A stretch of 64,000 nt of DNA from Vicugna vicugna (taxonomy: Eukaryota), in contig MU057809.1 in NCBI GenBank assembly GCA_013265495.1, positions 1,665,062 to 1,729,061 of the forward strand, given 5' to 3'. Below are positions 7,661 to 49,378 of this stretch, piece after piece (position 1 is the first letter of the stretch; each line of letters opens with the position of its first letter). The position numbers and the translations under genes are program-made. The notes under the pieces were generated by a model. The model had not been told where the DNA came from and ran no database searches. It saw nothing but the letters and a program-made list of their open reading frames with translations.

Positions 7661-8199
7661 TTTTTAATTGAAGTACAGTTAGTTACAACGTGTCAATTTC
7701 TGGTGTTCAGTATAATGTCCCTGTCATGTATGTATGTATGTATATATGTATTTATATATATTCGTTTTCATATTCAAGAGAAGGACTGCAAATCAATTAC
7801 AGCACACGCTTACTGAATCCTGTGCTATACAGAAGAAAATTGTTTTTTAATCTATTTTTATATATAGTAGTTAATATTTACAAATCTCAAACTCCCAGTT
7901 TATCCCTTCCCACCCCCTTTCCTCCCATCGGTAACCATAAGATTGTTTACTACCTCTGTGAGTCTGTTTCTGTTTTGTAGACGAGTTCATTAGTGTCTTC
8001 ATCTTTTAGATTCCACATATGAGTGCTATCATATGGTATTTTTCTTTCTCTTTCTGGCTTACTTCACTTAGAATGACGATTTCCAGGTCCATCCATGTTG
8101 CTGCAAATGGCATTATTTCATTCTTTTTATGGCTGAGTAATATTCCATTGTATAAATACACCACAGTTTCTTTGTCCAGTCATCTGTTGATGGATATTT
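7661..8199 (-). mobile_element. 5'-truncated camelid-type L1 (3' UTR and ORF2 end)
   Basis: T-tract then aattgaagtacagttagttacaa...; flanked by imperfect TSD agccaaccactaaccattct (7641-7660) / agccaaacactaatctattct (8200-8220); homologous to the 3' part of 11033-12879. Confidence 0.85.
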
Positions 8200-8583
8200 A
8201 GCCAAACACTAATCTATTCTCTGTTTCTACAGATTTGCCTATTCAAAACATTTTCTATAAATAGAATCATACACTATGTGGACTTTCGTGTCTGGCTTCT
8301 TTCACTTAGCAAATTGTTTCCAAGTTCCACCACGTTGTAGCATGTATCAGTATCTCATTCTTTTTATTGCCAAATATTATTCCTTTCTATAAACATGCCA
8401 CATTTTATTTATCTGTTTATCTGTTGATGGACATTTGGGTTGTTTCTACTTTTTGGCTATTGTGAATAATGCTGTGAACATTTGTGTACAAGTTTTTGTA
8501 TGGATATATGTTTTCATTAATCTTGGGAAGATACCTAAGAGTGGAATTGCTGGGTCATATGGTAGTTTCACGTTTAACATTTT

Positions 8584-8622
8584 CTGATCCGTAGTCAGAC
8601 GCGTTATCCATTGCGCTACTGG
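8584..8622 (-). pseudogene. Tailless retropseudogene of the 5' half of tRNA-Arg(ACG)
   Basis: Reverse complement CCAGTAGCGCAATGGATAACGCGTCTGACTACGGATCAG matches the recalled tRNA-Arg-ACG 5' half with one mismatch; perfect 16-bp TSD tcacgtttaacatttt at 8568-8583 and 8623-8638. Confidence 0.9.
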
Positions 8623-8896
8623 TCACGTTTAACATTTTGATGAACTAGCAGACTCTTTTCTGAAGCAGCTGCCCCATTTTGCATTCCCACAAGTGCCGTG
8701 TGAGGGTTCCAATTTCTCCATTTCTTTGTCAACACTTGCTACTGTCTTTTTTATTACAGCCATTCTAATGGGGGCAGAGTGGTATCCCAGTGTGGTTTTA
8801 ATTTGCCTTTCCTTCGTGACAGTTGGTTTTATGTTGATCTCGTATCTTTCCATCTTGCTGAAATTGATTATGAGTTCCAAGAATTTTTTAAGGAAA

Positions 8897-11032: not shown

Positions 11033-12879
11033 CAATAAAATACTTAGGAATAAGTCTGAAGGTGAAAGACTTATACGCAGAAAACTACCAAACATTGCTT
11101 AAGGAAATTAAAAATGACTTAAAGAAATGGAAAGATATCCCATGCTCTTGGATTGGAAGAAATAATATTGTTAAAATGGCCAAACTATCCAAAACAATCT
11201 ACACATTTAGTGTGATCCCTATCAAATTACCCAGGACATTTCTCACAGAACTAGAACAAATAATTCTGAAGTTTATGTGGAATCACAAAAGACTCAGAAT
11301 TGCCAAGGCACTACAGAAGAAAAAGAATGAAGATGGAGGAATAACCCTCCTAGACATCAGATAATACTACAGAGCTACAGTAATTAAAACAGCATGGTAT
11401 TGGCCCAAAAACAGACATATGGATCAATGGGACAGAACAGAACCCAGAGACAAACCCACAGACTATGGTCAATTAATCCTCTACAAGGAGGCAAGAATGT
11501 ACAATGGAAAAAAGACAATCTCTTCAGCAACTGGTGTTGGGAAAACTGGATAGTTGCATGTAAATCATTGAAGTTAGAACACTTCCTCACTCCAAACACA
11601 AAAATAAACTCAAAATGGCTCAAAGACTTAAATATAAGACAAGACACTATAAATCTCCTGGAAGAAAACATAGGCAAAACCTTCTCTGACATAAATCTTA
11701 GTGATGTTATCCTAGGCAATCTACCTAAGCGATAGAAATAAAAGCAAAAATAAACAAATGTGACCTAATTAAACCTGTAAGCTTTTGCATAGCAAAGGAA
11801 ACCATAAGCAAAGCAGCATGACAACCTACAGAACGGGAGAAAGTATTTGCAAGTGACACGACTGACAAAGGTTTAATTTCTGGAATATATAAACGGCTCA
11901 CATACAGCTTAATGACAACAACAACAACAAAGCAACCCAATCCAAAAATGGGCAGAAGACCTAAACAAGCAGTTCTCCAAGGAAGACATACAAATGGCCA
12001 ACAGGCACATGAAAAAATGCTCAATATCACTAATTATCAGAGAAATGCAAATCAAAACAAAACGAGGTATCACCTAACACCAGTCAGAAAAAAAAATTCA
12101 AAAGTAATGACAAATGCTGGAGAGGGTGTGCAGCAAAGGGAACCCTCCTACACTGCTGGTGGGAATGTAGTTTGGTGCAGCCACTATGGAGGACAGCATG
12201 AAGATTCCTCAAAAGATTAAAAATAGACAGACCATATGATCCAGCAGTCCCACTCCTGGGCATATATCTGGAGGGGACTTTAATTCAAAAAGATAAATGC
12301 ACACCAATGTTCATAGCAGCATTATTTACATAGCCAAGACACGGAAGCAACCTAAATGCCCATCGACAGATGACTGGATAAAGAAACAGTGGTCTATTTA
12401 TACAATGGAACACTACTCAGCCATAAAAAAGAATAAAATAATGCCATTTGCAGCAACATGGATGGACCTGGAAATCGTCATTCTAAGTGAAGTAAGCCAG
12501 AAAGAGAAAGAAAAATGCCATATGATAGCACTCATATGTGGAATCTAAAAAAAAGGAAAAAGAAGATACTAATGAACGTATCTACAAAACAGAAACAGAT
12601 TCATAGGCATAGTTAACAATCTTATGGTTACCAGGAGGAAAGAGGGTTCGAAGGGATAAATTGAGAGTTCAAGAGCTGCAAATCCTAACAACTGTATATA
12701 AAGTAGGCAAGCAACAGGTTTCCCCTGTCGGGCACAGGGAGCTGTACTCAGTGTCTTGTAGTGACCTACAATGAAACAGATAGGAAAAGGAATATATGTG
12801 CGTACGTGTGTGACTGAAACGTGCTGCACACCAGAAATTGACGCAACGCTCTAAACTGACTGTACTTCAGTAACAAAAA
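11033..12879 (+). mobile_element. 5'-truncated L1 (ORF2 3' part and 3' UTR), frameshifted
   Basis: ORFs 11029..11364 ([17 protein letters not shown]), 11394..11735 ([13 protein letters not shown]), 12297..12548 (KQPKCPS..FAATWMDLE) are L1 ORF2 pieces in different frames; A-rich tail at ~12872-12879. Confidence 0.95.
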
Positions 12880-16734: not shown

Positions 16735-17237
16735 TGTGAGAGGGAAGAACAAATCTGACTCCATATTGGACCTGCTCCTCTGGCTCTAGCCCCGGGCTCT
16801 GTCTGCTGTGCTGAGTCCTGCTGGGTCTGCACCTTTTGTGAAAGAATGTTGCCTGGAGCCTGAAAGAGACAGGAGAGCCCATTCTCAAGGCTCTCACCTT
16901 GAGGGTATAAACTTTTCCATTTAAAAAGAGATTAAAAATTGCAGAACAGAGAATAACATTGTCTTGGAGGTTTACAGGAACATCGTGGCTTGACCTATGT
17001 GGACAGCAGCAAGAACAAAGGATTCTGACACCAAGAAGTTTGCAACCACACCCCTCCCCTTTTTAGTATAAAAGGAGCCTGAATGCTGACTTGGGGAAGG
17101 TGGTTCTCTAGGACATTGTTCCCCCATCTTCTCAGTCTGCCGGCTTTCTGAATAAAGTCATTATCCCTTGCACCAACACCTCATCTCCTGATTTATTGGC
17201 CTGTTGTGCGGCCAGCAGGAGTTTGGACTCTGCTACA
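16735..17237 (+). mobile_element. MER41-like ERV1 solo LTR (copy 1)
   Basis: TG...CA termini, TATA (gtataaaagg ~17067), AATAAA (~17151), 4-bp flanks ccag/ccaa; aligns over its full length to 29590-30096. Confidence 0.85.
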
Positions 17238-28780: not shown

Positions 28781-29290
28781 GACTCATTTAGTTGGTAAGT
28801 GTTTATTGATCACCTACTGTGTGCCAGGCTTATGCTAGGCTCTGGGAAAACAAAGGTGAAAAAAAACCACACACACCAGACTTGGCCCCTATCCTCAACA
28901 CATTTACAATCTAGTCAGAAGCTAGACAGTAACCAAATCATCAAGTAAGCGACTGTGAAATTGCAGTTCTGTTCTCAGGAAGTCGCACGGTGCTCTGACA
29001 GCCTGTAGTAAAAGGATTTGACTTGGTCATGGAGCTGGTGGGGTTTTTTTGAGGAAGTGACCCTTGAAGGAGGAGATGCAGTCAAGTAGGAAGAGGGGAA
29101 GAGTGAGTGGGTGGAGGGGACGGACTGGCACATGGCAGCGTGAGGTCAGGGATGGGGACACAGTGCAAGATGAGGTCGGGGGTGGGGGAATGAGCAGTCT
29201 AGTCTTTATCCCAAGAGCAGGCGGACCCACGAGGGACGTATGGGAGAAATGTGATCAACTTTGCCTGTTAGAAGTTCACTCTAGCTCCCT
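28780..29290 (-). mobile_element. L2 LINE 3' region
   Basis: gtttattgatcacctactgtgtgccaggc...tttacaatctagt...gaggaagtgacccttgaag. Confidence 0.75.
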
Positions 29291-29589: not shown

Positions 29590-30096
29590 TGTAAGAGGGA
29601 AGCACAAGTCTGACTCCATGTGAGCTCTGCTCCTCTGGCTGTGATCCCGGCTCTGTTTCCCAGGCTGAGTCCTGCTGGGTCTGCACCTTTTGTAAAAGAA
29701 TGTTTTCTAGAGCCTGAAATAGACAGGAGAGCCCGTTCTCAAGGCTCCGACCTTTAAGGGTACAGCACTTTGCCATTCAGATAAAGATGAAACGTTGCAG
29801 AATAGAAAATAACATTTGTCCTGTTGGGGGTTTACAGGGACATCACGCCCTCACTCAGGAGAACGGCTGCAAGAACAAAGGCTTCCAGACACCCGGAAGT
29901 TTGCAACAACCAACCACACCCCCTCCCCTTTTAGTATAAAAGGAGCCTGAATTCTGACTTGGGGAAGATGGTTCTCCAGGACATGAGTCCCCCTATCTTC
30001 TAGCTGGCTTAGGTCATTATTCCTTGACCCAAAACCTCATCTCCCGATTTGCTGGTCTATCTTGCTGTGAGCAGGAAAAGTTTGGACTGGGTAACA
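29590..30096 (+). mobile_element. MER41-like ERV1 solo LTR (copy 2)
   Basis: TG...CA termini, TATA (gtataaaagg ~29935), 4-bp flanks ctcc/gtcc; collinear with 16735-17237. Confidence 0.85.
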
Positions 30097-30755: not shown

Positions 30756-32554
30756 AGTTAGTCGGTGAAAGGTTGGGTAAACCCTAAGCCTCTCACCATT
30801 ACTCAGCTGAAAAGATGAACTCACGTGTTCACAGAGGAGCCTAAGCTTCAAATGTTGGTAAGTATGAAAAAACAGTGATGCATTTAAAAAATCTGTTACT
30901 GTGAAAGGAAGAAAGGCAGGTCCCCACCTCCCCCCGGCTGAAGAAGCGAGGCCCCGGGAGGCGGCTGCAGGCCTCATTTCCTGTGCTGCCTGCGGGTTTC
31001 GTGCAAAGTTTCTGTGCACGCAGCTCAGGAGTCCACCCGCCCGGGGAGGCCAGCCGGGGGGCAGGCGCTGCAGCCTCGGCCCTGCTTCTGCCACTCCCGT
31101 TTGCTCCCTGGCTCTGCCTCTGACCTGCTTCCAGAAGGCAGAGCCCCAGAGCAGGGGTGCAGGGGCGGCGGGACCCTGCCTGGTGCTGTCCTCTTCCCGC
31201 CACGCCTGACGTCCGGCGCAAAAGGGGAAGGTGACTGCAAACGAAACATGAAAGGAGAAAAGCTTTTTCAAGCTGGGTGCTGAAGCAGGTTTTTCAGACC
31301 CACCAGCTCCACGACAGATGCTTGTGTGCTGTGTTAGTAACCGTTATTAAAGGTACAAGAGGTCCTCGTTGGAAGAATTCAGAATGCCACCAGAACCTTC
31401 TGCAGATAAATTCAAAAAAACCCCAAACAACGAAAGAAAAAACACCCTAATCCACAACCCACTCTTATTTTTGGAACAGAATAATGGTAAAAAAAAAAAA
31501 AAAGAATTAAAATAATCACAAAGGTATGATTTAATCCTCACAAGGTTATAAATATTAATATGAAAATGCCTTTACATTGGGAAATGTTATTACACAGTAT
31601 AATGTTAATTTGATGAAAATCAATTCATTTAGCGCTCATCCATTTTTCACTTCTCTCTTTGGCTTGTGCTGATGATTTAAGAATTACAGTTTGGAAGAAT
31701 GTTTCTGACTTTGACAACTGCCGTCTGGCATCAGGGCGGAGCACAGGATTTTGACAATGCAATTATTTCTCCAGTAATGCTCTGTGATTCCCCACAGGTG
31801 AGACTCTGGTGTAGCGGAGGCAGGTGAGCGGCTGAGCTGCAAGCTGGATGTTTTTAATTAGAACTGTGATTTGATTGACATATGTCCTTCAGATAGGCAA
31901 AGGCGTGAAACATGAGACCGAAGGGGAAAACACCTGAATGTTGAAGGGCCGGGAGGTTAGCAGGATGGTGACCTATTGGTGCCCACTCTGAGCAGGCACA
32001 GTGTGGGGTCTGCTGTATTTCTATCTCCTTGAAGCCCACCAGCAGCCCTGGAGGGGAATATGTGATCACCCCCATTTTACAGAGGAAGAGCCTGAGGGTC
32101 TAGAGAGTCAGGAACTCCCCTGCAGGTGTACCCCTAGGAAATGGCTGGCATGGGCTGGAGGCATGGGGCCACTTAGCTCCATGGCCCATGTGGGCCATGA
32201 CATCGGCTACTACCTTGGACTAAAGCTAGAACTTTCAGGGTGTGCCAGGTCCCCTCGCCACGTCAGAATCGGTCCCAGTGACACCGCTCAGTGAAGGCTC
32301 ATGAAATGCTGACCAAAGTGAATTTATGCATAGTGTCAGTGGCCAGAGATGATTTTTAGATGGAGGCCACAGGACCAATGTTTTGAAAGTGTCATTCACT
32401 ATCCAAGAGCTGAACACCCGATTCCGAGTTCCACGAGGTGGGTCACTAGGTGAAGTCCTTTTTTAAAAAATGGAGCATCATGACAGAGCTGAAAGGAAGG
32501 AGGAAAAACAGCTGGCGTGAAGTTGCGTTTGGAACCCGTTCCAGCTCCCGGAGG

Positions 32555-33400
32555 AAGACGCGGAAGCCCGGCGGCGGGAGAGCGCCGGCGCGGCCGCTGG
32601 GGCCCCGCCCGCCTGTCTGATGTGCGCGCGGGGCGCCCACCGTGCGGCGCGTTAGGGAAGCAGCGCGGGCTGGGTGGGTCGTGCCGGCGTCGGGAGCGGC
32701 ACGCGGCTCCTCGGGGAAGGTCTGAAGAGCAGTCAAGCTGAGTTAGTGTCCAAGCGACCCTGTGACAGTCTTGATTACGGTCCCCAATGAGGGAGGCCTC
32801 GGCTTCGTTTTTGTTCACTGTAAGTTAAGAGACCGCCGGGCGGGTGGCTGAGAGAGACGCCGAGGAGGCGGCGGCCGCGCCGCGTCTGCGGCGTCTGGGG
32901 ACCGCACAGCAGGCCCTGGCACGCGCCCCCCCGGGGGCACGGAGGCTGTGTGTCTCAGTCGGTGCCCAGCGCGGGAGACGTGGTCAGGACGAGACAGAGC
33001 GCTCCTCCCGTCCCTGCAGCCCGCGGCCTGCACGCGCCGGAGGCCTGCGCTGGGACCAAGGGAAATGGGCGCGCGCCCTGCACGGGGGACCGCGCCCGGG
33101 GCTGCGGCGCGGCGGAGGCGGGCCGCGGACCCTGGAGCCGAGCGGACCCTTCCGCCGCGCTCTCCCGCAGACAGGGGCCTCTGGCGGGCGGGACCTCGGA
33201 CGGCTCTACCCCGAGGGCACGGGAGGTCTGCCGAGTTGTCCCAGGTCGGAGGGAAGGGGTGAGGTGGGAGGGAAGGGCTGGGACCCGGAGGGACGCCGCG
33301 TGCGTGGGGACCGGGGAGAAGCCCAGCCGCGGGTGCAGACGGATCCCTTCCCACCCCTCGCCCCCCGGGGCCGCAAGTGGTTTACTCTGCGAGTCTGTCT
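32555..33400. promoter_or_regulatory. CpG-island-like region, partly derived from L2 and L1
   Basis: Dense CpG; 32950-33340 retains L2 3' architecture and 33343-33515 is an L1 3' UTR fragment. Confidence 0.7.
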
Positions 33401-33515
33401 GTCTTGCTGATGAGTTCATTAGCGTCCTTTTTTTTTTTCTTTTGATTCCACATATGAGTGGTATCATATAGTATTTTTCTTTCTCTTTCTGGCTTACTTC
33501 ACTTAGAATGACGGT
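33343..33515 (-). mobile_element. Camelid-type L1 3' UTR/ORF2-end fragment
   Basis: gattccacatatgagtggtatcatatagtatttttctttctctttctggcttacttcacttagaatgac is nearly identical to 8009-8077. Confidence 0.9.
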
Positions 33516-34594
33516 CTCTTTTATAAATTAACAAAACGCGAGGGGCTGCAAATAAAAACTCACGCACCCCATCACCACGGGCAGCGCGTACTTTCCCGCA
33601 TGGTTGCCGTTCGTCCAAGGAAGTGAAAGCTTCGGTGACTTTTGTCAGTTTAAGTTAGACCCTTAACTCCTTAAACATATTTCCTGTACGTAACAGAATC
33701 ATGGCAGAAACATGAAGCTATCTGTCACATACACACCAGCGTCCACGGAGCAGAGGTGTAATCATGGGGGTGCCTGGATACCAGAACACTTGTGCAAATG
33801 AAAATTGATTTTCTCGAGAATTCTTCGCCTGGTGAAATAAATTAAATCTACATTTACTCCTATTTGTTTAAAAAGCTCTTTGTTAAAATAAGTACAGCAG
33901 TATATAGACATGATCCAATAAATTAGAGGAGGATAAATTATACCTAATAAGATTCTGCACAGAGACCACACACAGAAGGAACCCAGGGGAGGTGCGCTGG
34001 TGAAAGCCACTTAAATGTTTGGACTAATTCTCTTTGTAATGATAAAACTGACAAACATATGTTTGGGCCTCTTCAAGCTTGTTTAATTTTATTTTTTTCC
34101 AAATCAGTTTTATTATTATTTTAATTGGGGAAAAATAAGCTACGGAGTTTTCACTTAGCCTGGAGAAATGCAAGTTGAACTAGGTCTTAAAATTGAATGC
34201 AGACTGAATGGCAAGGAACAAACATCTTTAATGAGAGGAAACTGCATTACCAGCCCTGCATGAAAATGTGTTCCACCCTGAGCACACCAGCCTGCCTCTC
34301 AGATTTTCACTTTCCCCCCCAGCAAAAGGGAGATTTAAAAAGCTGTGAGTGTTGAGTGAGTGTCTAGTCAGGACCTGGCAGCTGCCACTGAGGGCAACCT
34401 GGCTGGTGCTGGTGTGGGTGGGGAGGGTTTTGCTTCTTGGCTATGTTTATGAATGCGCTGGCATCCCACGACAGGGGTGCTGGTTGGTCTGCAGAAAAAC
34501 GAAGTGGGCGTCTGCTAGCTGCTCTCAGCCCGCTGGGGGAATGTCAAAACGACAGACGAAAATTTGCTAATTCCACGTTCAATTTTTTTTCTCA

Positions 34595-39609: not shown

Positions 39610-40515
39610 GATTTTTTATCAAAGATGATTTTTAGAGCAGTCTTAGGTCTACCGTAAAAACACGAGGAAGGTACAGAGATTTCCTGTACATCCCCTACCC
39701 CTGTATACACATAGCTCCCCCATTGCCAACGTCACTCAAGAGAATGGTAACCTTTTTTACCACGGATGAACCTACACTGACACATCAAAATCCTCAAAGT
39801 CTATAGCTTACACGAGGGTTCCCTCTCGGTGGTGTCCATTCTCTGGGTTTGGACCAATGACCGGCATCCATTATTATAATATCACACAGAGTATTTTCTA
39901 CCCTAAGAATCCTCTGTGCTCTGCCTGTTCATCTCTGGCGTCTTCCATCCTGTCCTGACCCCTGGCAACCACTCATCTTTTTATTATTTCCATAATTTTG
40001 CCTTTTCCCGAATGTCATGCAGTTGGCATCGTACAGTCTATAGCTTTTGCACACTGGCTGCTTGCACTTAGTGATATGCATTTAGGTTTCCTCCATAGCT
40101 TTTCACAAATTGATAGCTCATTTCTTTTTACTGTGGGATTGTGTCTCATTGCCCGAATGTATCACAGTTTCTTCACTCACCCACTGAAGGACAAGTTGGC
40201 TGCTTCTGAGTTTGGCAATGACGAATGAGGCTGCTGTACACACCCGTGTGAGGTTTCTGTAAGGACGTAGTTTTCAGCGTCCCTGGGTAAGCACCAAGGG
40301 GCACGGCTGCTGGGCCACACGGCGAGGTGCGTTTAGTTCTGTGAGAGACCACCAGCGGTCTTCCCCGTCGCGGGAAGTGGCCGCGCCGCCCCGCAGCCCC
40401 CGCGGCGGCGGACGAGCGCTCCCGTCGCTCCGCGTCCTCGCCGGCGTTCGGCGCGGTCGGCGCTGCGGATTCCGGCTGTTCTAGTGGCTGTGTGTGGTGC
40501 CCCGTCTTCTAACTT
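39610..40515 (-). mobile_element. L1MC-like 3' region; right part GC-converted
   Basis: tttttagagcagtcttaggt...gatgaacctacactgacacatca...cctggcaaccactcatctttttattatttccataattttgccttttcc. Confidence 0.85.
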
Positions 40516-40704
40516 GAGTGATTCTTAAGAACCGCTGGAGCGAGCAGCACGCAAAGCAGGATGCGCCGCGCGGCCGCGCTCACACGAAGCGCCAGCGCGG
40601 CGAGGCGAGCAGCGACGTCGGAGGCCGGAGCGCGTCTGCCGGGCGGCGGGCGGCGACAGACGCGAGCGAGAGGGCGCTCCGCGGGGCGCCGGGGACGTCC
40701 GGCC

Positions 40705-41150
40705 TCGCTGCCCGGCGCGGTGGCCACTAGCCCCGCTGCGCGCAGGGAATTGAGGAAGTGGGTGTCACATTTTATTTAACTTTAGTTAAATTGTAGGTTT
40801 AAAGCTTAAAACTGAAGCAGTTGAGAGTATTTTCCCCTTAAACACAGCTCTTTTGTTTTGGTAGGGCTTCATCTCACGTTAACAGTTTAGAAGGCGGCAT
40901 CTGAACTGAGCTGTGCCAGAAGTATAAAATACACACCAGGTTACGAAGACTTGTTACCCAACAAGAGTAAAATTTTTATTATAGTTTAAATCTTCCTTAC
41001 GTGTTAAAATGATACTGTTTTTAATGCACTGGGCTAAAAGGTGGTATTAAAGTTAATTTCACCTCTTTCTTTTTACTTGTCTTAATGTGGCTACTAGGAA
41101 ATGTGAAATGACATGTGTGCTCTCATTCTGTTGCTACCGGACAGGGCGCG
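40705..41150 (+). mobile_element. MER33/Charlie1-like hAT element
   Basis: ggtggccactagcc...gtataaaatacacaccagg...aatgtggctactaggaaatgtgaaatgacatgtgtgctc...ggacagggcg. Confidence 0.8.
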
Positions 41151-42940: not shown

Positions 42941-43198
42941 GAGCCGGCCCTCCTGTGCTTGTGCCCCTCCCCCATCGAGCAGGGCAGCCCTCTCCCCTTC
43001 GAGTAGGGCAGACCTGTTTGATGGGAGGCCACAGGGCTCCTGAGCCTAGGTCACAGACACGTGGGGAGAGCCGGCCCTCCTGTGCTTGTGCCCCAAGTGG
43101 CCCTCTCCCCCATCGAGCAGGGCAGCCCTCTCCCCTTCGAGTAGGGCAGACCTGTTTGATGGGAGGCCACAGGGCTCCTGAGCCTAGGTCACAGACAC
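42941..43198. repeat. Tandem duplication (120 bp + 131 bp)
   Basis: 42941-43060 repeated at 43068-43198, identical apart from an 11-bp indel. Confidence 0.95.
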
Positions 43199-48283: not shown

Positions 48284-49006
48284 GGGTTGCGGTGGGGGGG
48301 CGGGGTTGAAACCTCCACCAACAAGCCATGATGCCAGTACAACAGACTGATTACATTCTAAAGTTTGACATTCAGCTGCCTGTGTTCAGATCTCACCTCT
48401 GCCACTCAGTTGTGGAGCCCTGACCTCACGAGCCTCAGTTTCCCCGTCAGTGAAATGGGGCTGATCATGGTACAAACTTGTACCATTTAAGCTCCGCGTG
48501 GATGCAAAGAATGTAAAATTCAGCTCAAACTGAGATGGTCCCTTGTTTATTTCCACTTCTGGGCAGTGTCAGATTCATCATAATATAATTATAATATGAC
48601 TGCCAACCAGTCCTGGAGCTAGAAATGTCACAGGAGAGTGATAAAGCATCTTTCATACAGCCCCCATTAAAACCTCCCCCTAGGGTTCATGGACTGATTT
48701 GGGTGGTTTGACCACATCTGAACCAGTCACGGTCCAGGGCACGAGATCACATTGGTCAGATCAGGCCTGAGGGAACTACCCTTTCTCTAGAGCAGAAGTG
48801 GACTTATCTCCAAAGAACACTCCTGAATGGAGATCAGATACTCATGGGAGAGTCATGAAGACTAAGAAGTTAACACCTGCACACAGTGAGTGCTCAATAA
48901 ATGTTAACTGTTTATTGGTTGCTATTATTTTCCCAGTGAAATCCACTTAACCAACAGTCTTATGAAAAAATTTATTCTACTGAAAATGTTTCTGCCCATA
49001 TCTCTT

Positions 49007-49378
49007 CACCATCACCATCGTCATCATGATCACCTCCATCACCACCATCATCATCAGCATCATCACCACCACTATCACCATCATCATCACCACCATTGTC
49101 ACCACCACCATCATCACCATTATCACCACCATCACCACCACCATCACCACCATCATCACCATCACCATCATCATCATCACCACCACTATCACCATCACCA
49201 TCATCGTCACCACCATTGTCACCACCACCATCACCATTATCACCACCATCACCACCACCATTATCACCACCATCATCACCATCACCACCATCACCACCAT
49301 CATCACCACTATCACCATCACCACCACTATCACCATCACCACCACCACCATCACCACCATCACACGGACACCATCACT
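49007..49378. repeat. Imperfect (CAC/CAT)n trinucleotide array
   Basis: ~370 bp of caccatcaccaccat variants, between MIR remnants. Confidence 0.95.

Follow-up and report, generated by a model that had tools for sequence, protein, structure and literature searches.

[quoted passage not shown] In the dog, gBGC is reported to create CpG islands away from genes (Berglund et al., PMC4350167). Our locus resembles these islands, as that study presents them, in being a new island off genes with a strong excess of changes from A/T to G/C (W-to-S) and a low loss of CpGs. It differs in that dogs lack a functional PRDM9, whereas the genome searched here carries open SSXRD and PR/SET exons. Furthermore, the dog study used alignments between species, whereas we infer the ancestral sequence from copies of the repeats and use an L1 insertion to time the change. 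Similar signatures have been described at PRDM9-independent hotspots of placental mammals, where gBGC acts at hypomethylated loci in many species with intact PRDM9 (Joseph et al., PMC11161765). Like them, our locus carries this signature in DNA that is rich in CpG and putatively unmethylated, and its genome has seemingly kept PRDM9. However, the loci of that study are orthologous to mouse and dog hotspots and are mostly conserved, whereas this one appears to have been made within a lineage, inside repeats; its main text names neither camel nor alpaca.

The relation between islands and transposons has been approached from two other directions. Work on the turnover of orphan islands treats gBGC as one of their sources and deliberately excludes repeat-masked sequence; the transposon route that it describes is the insertion of CpG-rich elements, in contrast to the later rewriting of AT-rich fossils considered here (Kocher et al., PMC11170920). 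You et al. (PMC12582260) ask, as we do, how islands and transposons relate, and report that human and mouse islands are almost free of RepeatMasker-annotated elements; the term 'gene conversion' does not occur in their main text, and the island described here contains a probable L2 to which a plain profile search is blind. Our literature search, which left most subscription papers outside, returned nothing on old LINEs rewritten into CpG islands or on repeats made undetectable by gBGC, and only PMC11170920 combined gBGC, transposons and islands. Searched by title, no paper on camelid recombination with PRDM9 and CpG islands was found.

The island and its surroundings

The window (the whole stretch of DNA that was analysed, 64,000 nt) was placed in a local survey region of 264 kb around it, and genome searches were run on a 2.03-Gb mammalian assembly. 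A CpG island was defined by sequence as a stretch of at least 500 nt with a GC content of at least 0.55 and a CpG observed-to-expected ratio (o/e) of at least 0.65. By this definition, the island that the sequence-only reading had seen here is real: it spans 32401-33480, with no strand assigned (1080 nt, GC 0.67, 114 CpGs, o/e 0.95). Its CpGs fall into four parts, with 58 in 32401-32939, 42 in 32940-33256, 9 in 33257-33342 and 5 in 33343-33480. The 264 kb as a whole have a CpG o/e of 0.47, compared with 0.23-0.24 in loci fetched from elsewhere in the genome, and contain 35 island-like stretches (at least 500 nt), among which this island ranks third by o/e.

Half or more of the island's words are present in 15 of the 24 listed runs (six studies, two organism labels; one may be the source), which rules out an assembly artefact. 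In five runs that are RNA, or probably so, 5-6% of these words occur, which is no evidence of expression. A segmental copy was rejected as well, as the non-L1 part of the island occupies one place in the genome in a search that skipped common words. An exact 20-mer search of metagenomes for an orthologue returned one match, judged to be chance.

The island is intergenic, located between two genes and upstream of CARD11 as we place the start of that gene. Exons 68-95 kb to the left of the window encode CARD and PDZ domains, with CARD11 as their best structure match (E 1.7e-23), and CARD11 itself probably starts in an island with assembly gaps at about -1.1 to -0.3 kb, putting the studied island ~33 kb from this putative promoter island. 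A peptide near +162 kb resembles what we take to be the end of SDK1 exon 1. Assembly gaps lie inside both flanking promoter-like islands (L021:9398-9515 and L031:6994-7699); the studied island is fully assembled. None of the 150 longest among the 373 window frames of at least 70 amino acids (the 223 shorter ones being left out) matched Pfam, and Rfam gave no match in 32000-34500, so that both a protein-coding and a structured-RNA reading of the island were dropped. No coding gene was found among these frames, and the island may be the 'orphan' proposed from the sequence alone, although a non-coding start may lie within it.

Several other features of the window were recorded. A second island, 7 kb away at 40181-40840 (80 CpGs, o/e 1.19), looks by eye like the GC-shifted continuation of an old L1 and of a DNA-transposon fossil. 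Inside an old L1, at 8568-8638, about 40 nt lie between 16-nt direct repeats; we presume this stretch to be a tailless retrocopy resembling the 5' half of tRNA-Arg, and Rfam found no tRNA match in the interval. Two direct copies of 500 nt, 78% identical and 12.9 kb apart (16735-17229 and 29590-30088), look by eye like separate solo LTRs. The window also contains a tandem duplication of about 125 nt at 42941-43198 (92% identical) and a 357-nt array of three-base units at 49006-49363.

Ancestry of the island sequence

For the right half of the island, the most likely origin is an old L2 fossil next to the edge of a younger L1, with A/T replaced by G/C in both. The older part, a probable L2 3' segment at 32940-33256 on the minus strand, corresponds to positions 118-430 of an L2 profile; the profile has a GC content of 0.47 and a single CpG over this range, and the island segment is now 76% GC with its 42 CpGs. 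We take both the name L2 and the orientation from the tail of the repeat. For the profile, 80 copies were collected across the genome with short patterns matched exactly (60 from the 100 matches listed of 219, plus 20 of 23); the island was not among them.

A sensitive nhmmer search, put forward by the sequence-only reading as a check on its L2, left the island unmatched with all three home-built versions of the profile; in the 264 kb, nhmmer gave 24 L2 matches, one of which, at 28782-29089, is an ordinary L2. Local tests in which GC gain was allowed placed profile positions 124-301 on 32946-33128, where the L2 had been read by eye, with a score within the range of shuffles. In local tests that allow for rewriting, 38/766 and 10/400 shuffles did as well (p about 0.05), the remaining tests being not significant, and with an early version of the profile the end of the L2 could also be put at 33066, a second place that scored about as well. 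All of this would suit a CpG island or regulatory element that is ancestral and does not descend from L2, at whose edge a short L1 piece landed and was partly eroded, and in which the likeness to L2 is chance in GC-rich sequence. The local test has low power, however: when six held-out real L2 copies were rewritten in simulation at 70%, they reached no more than -3 to +14 bits in it.

What speaks against chance likeness is an end-to-end test, in which the whole profile segment is forced to align anywhere in the island with rewriting allowed, and whose range and parameters were set after alignments had been seen. For four of five profile ranges, no shuffle scored as well (0/400, 0/400, 0/389 and 0/303). 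Positions 118-430 scored 3.6 bits vs -13.6 +/- 3.3 in the 389 shuffles, and -13.7 when the island was reversed. Shuffling in blocks of 30 and 45 nt gave 1/250 and 0/250, and a shuffled profile gave 0/250 twice. The island also came first among 240 GC-rich window-strands, the best of 230 others scoring -11.5 after 10 overlapping the island or a known L2 had been set aside; these control windows overlap each other and only 36 have a GC content of at least 0.65. Across 317 nt, the alignment departs little from a single diagonal and has 24 gap columns. Collinear homology to the L2 consensus thus goes beyond chance in the end-to-end test, tuned post hoc as it was, and is borderline in the local ones. 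We regard an L2 origin of 32940-33256, as first read from the sequence, as quite probable, and stop short of a firmer statement because of the post hoc range and parameters, the overlapping control windows and the small absolute score.

The detailed L2 layout given by that reading survives in part. Its first segment, 32972-33030, falls on consensus positions about 140-209. Its second, 33190-33225, belongs to a region (profile positions 331-430) that is not significant alone in the end-to-end test (58/400 shuffles), and there the collinear placement and the one originally given score within about 2 bits of each other. Within the L2 part, 109/163 W sites have become S and 20/140 S sites have become W, in an alignment that itself favours such changes; two control L2 copies show 42/161 W-to-S with 32/137 S-to-W, and 31/141 with 35/127. 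In the best fit, the share of A/T sites that were kept is 0.25 for the island vs 0.7 for two ordinary L2 copies.

The left half of the island, 32401-32939 (no strand assigned), matched neither the L2 profile, nor a MIR profile, nor any of 87 local repeat-like intervals, and its reading as a MIR, a second L2 or a local repeat was rejected. The L2 and L1 named as the substance of the island in the sequence-only reading therefore cover 32940-33517 and leave out this half, whose 58 of the 114 CpGs matched no ancestor that was tried. This half may be an older element from which the process started. Two blocks of 81-82% GC flank a dip to 51% GC at 32711-32830, a candidate constrained core. An ancestral island without L2 gains from both points, as half of the CpGs lie in sequence with no assigned ancestor and the dip could be such a core. 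Set against it are the end-to-end result with its controls, the single diagonal and the lack of any coding exon found, and we consider this explanation unlikely.

At the right edge of the island lies a 5'-truncated fragment of a 3'UTR (33343-33517, minus strand, 175 nt) from a high-copy lineage family that we take to be L1. It has 39 other genome matches at 80-90% among 40 scored. A consensus of 11 copies (the nine best genome matches and two from the window) equals the piece at 155/175 aligned sites. The last 224 nt and the poly(A) of the L1 are not recognisable, and neither a poly(A) end nor a target-site duplication was found. We also considered that the whole 224-nt end is present in rewritten form; no signal appeared beyond 100 nt, base composition did not separate L1 from L2, and a later deletion would be the simplest reading.

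The inner edge of this piece, 33343-33400 on the minus strand, appears rewritten. Over the inner 62 aligned positions, a cut chosen after the alignment had been seen, 10/27 A/T sites have become G/C vs 21/359 in the copies behind the 11-copy consensus. Because some of these apparent changes may be old CpGs that have decayed elsewhere in the family, five CpG-like sites were masked, and seven flank copies were added to give 18 control copies. The excess persists, with W-to-S changes outside CpG at 8/25 vs 31/549 (p=1e-4), although one more diverged control copy of the 18 has 7 W-to-S changes in the same positions. The excess declines outward to 4/41 in the middle part (p=0.14) and 1/40 in the outer part (p=1.0), and 33445-33513 is identical to a sibling copy at 67/69 positions, in agreement with the gradient reported from the sequence. 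Over the whole piece, outside CpG, W-to-S changes number 13/106 and S-to-W changes 3/59, vs 87/1975 and 79/1056 in controls (p=0.001), an excess of W-to-S over S-to-W outside CpG sites that is one mark of a gBGC tract. The alignment on which the gradient had been based, 33343-33395 against 7902-7948, does contain 7 W-to-S and no S-to-W changes; the string quoted for it ends at 33383 and not at 33395, and one of the changes counted (site 30) is more plausibly an ancestral CpG that has survived in this copy.

Outside CpG sites, nine genome-wide copies of the family differ from the consensus by 2.6-6.9%. The neutral rate is 2-2.5 per billion sites per year, and this divergence suggests that the L1 inserted 15-30 million years ago. 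Since the W-to-S excess fades outward through the L1, rewriting continued after its insertion, as the sequence-only reading had proposed. In another copy of the same family in the window, at 12351-12869, the terminal 216 nt carry 39 changes from W to S and 6 from S to W, compared with 6-19 W-to-S changes in ten others; this copy may be a weaker gBGC spot or reflect a subfamily difference.

Between the L2 and L1 parts, the junction at 33257-33342 (no strand assigned) has 78% GC and could be a continuation of the L2, or else another 20-80 nt of L1 that was rewritten. The L2 score drops beyond profile position 430. Extending the L1 into the junction from its anchored end gave scores equalled by 5-43/400 shuffles at 20 nt and 19-35/400 at 80 nt, with no signal past 100 nt, which hints at a further 20-80 nt of L1. 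Beyond the L1 piece, the right shoulder at 33518-33700 (no strand assigned) has a GC content of 0.45 and a CpG o/e of 1.22, a combination that would be expected from suppressed CpG decay outside the GC-rich core.

Possible causes of the rewriting

Overall, we favour an explanation with reasonable, if not strong, confidence in which two dead retrotransposon remnants came to lie at an unmethylated spot that recombines. It would start from a dead L2 3' end adjoining a truncated L1 3'UTR. The spot would then lose its germ-line methylation and attract meiotic recombination over a long period, gBGC would fix G/C over A/T in every sequence context, and the absence of methylation would let new CpGs persist. 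Germline hypomethylation would account for the CpGs kept in the L1 piece and for the shoulder's high o/e in AT-richer sequence. Recombination and gBGC as the cause are suggested by the pattern of changes and by the papers cited above, and at least part of the change would fall within the last 15-30 million years.

The changes themselves bear on the choice of process. In the L2 part, W-to-S changes are as frequent outside TpG/CpA (82/122) as inside (27/41); 43/109 are transversions and 16/109 turn TpG or CpA into CpG. A one-way excess, free of context and fading with distance, is the pattern expected of gBGC, as far as can be judged from base changes. At C4951:30966-33270, the genome also has an open SSXRD exon and two stop-free PR/SET exons, arranged in the order known from PRDM9 (a zinc-finger array was not seen there). 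Given these exons, the locus would be of the PRDM9-independent hotspot kind, in a species that seems to keep the gene.

The changes could instead reflect a loss of methylation together with a mutational bias, without any recombination-linked fixation bias: CpGs would no longer decay, or TDG-type aberrant repair, which turns TpG/CpA into CpG (PMC4041421), would add new ones. The L1 piece keeps 3/5 of its ancestral CpG-like sites vs 11/88 in controls (p=0.023), and the o/e of the right shoulder is reached at only 45% GC, both of which fit such a bias. However, TpG/CpA to CpG accounts for only 2/15 changes in the L1 piece and for the small share given above in the L2 part, and the absence of decay cannot lift the rate of A/T-to-G/C change about sixfold. 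As the W-to-S excess persists with CpG-like sites masked, is independent of context and includes many transversions, neither lost CpG decay nor TDG-type repair explains it, and we rate a bias of this kind as less probable still than an ancestral island. Co-option of the fossils as an enhancer or promoter for CARD11 or a neighbour, with selection favouring G/C and CpG, is the least probable of all: the distance to the putative CARD11 promoter island would allow it, and species-specific orphan islands are described as tracking species-specific enhancer marks (PMC11170920), but about two thirds of A/T sites changed regardless of context, none of eight promoter motifs is enriched in the island (the best matched by 32/300 shuffles), the smooth gradient into the L1 suits conversion tracts better than binding sites, and a second such island lies only 7 kb away.

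Possible hidden transposons in orphan islands

The locus shows the size of the process directly, as repeat copies reveal the ancestor and a younger insertion brackets the change: in the old fossil, G/C has taken the place of A/T at about two thirds of the A/T sites, and along the edge of the young L1 at a third of them. A plain profile search does not find an L2 rewritten to this extent, a blind spot that matters for claims that transposons are kept out of CpG islands. We tentatively propose, as a possibility that we would not yet call probable, that in a lineage that seems to keep PRDM9, gBGC rewrote AT-rich retrotransposon fossils beyond detection by profile search within a few tens of millions of years. 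If this is true, a real share of orphan CpG islands would be hidden transposons, and the reported absence of transposons from islands would partly be a detection effect. The edges of young L1s would then provide a clock for the birth of islands and the rate at which they spread. Given methylation and polymorphism data, this locus could test whether hypomethylation precedes or follows the gain of GC.
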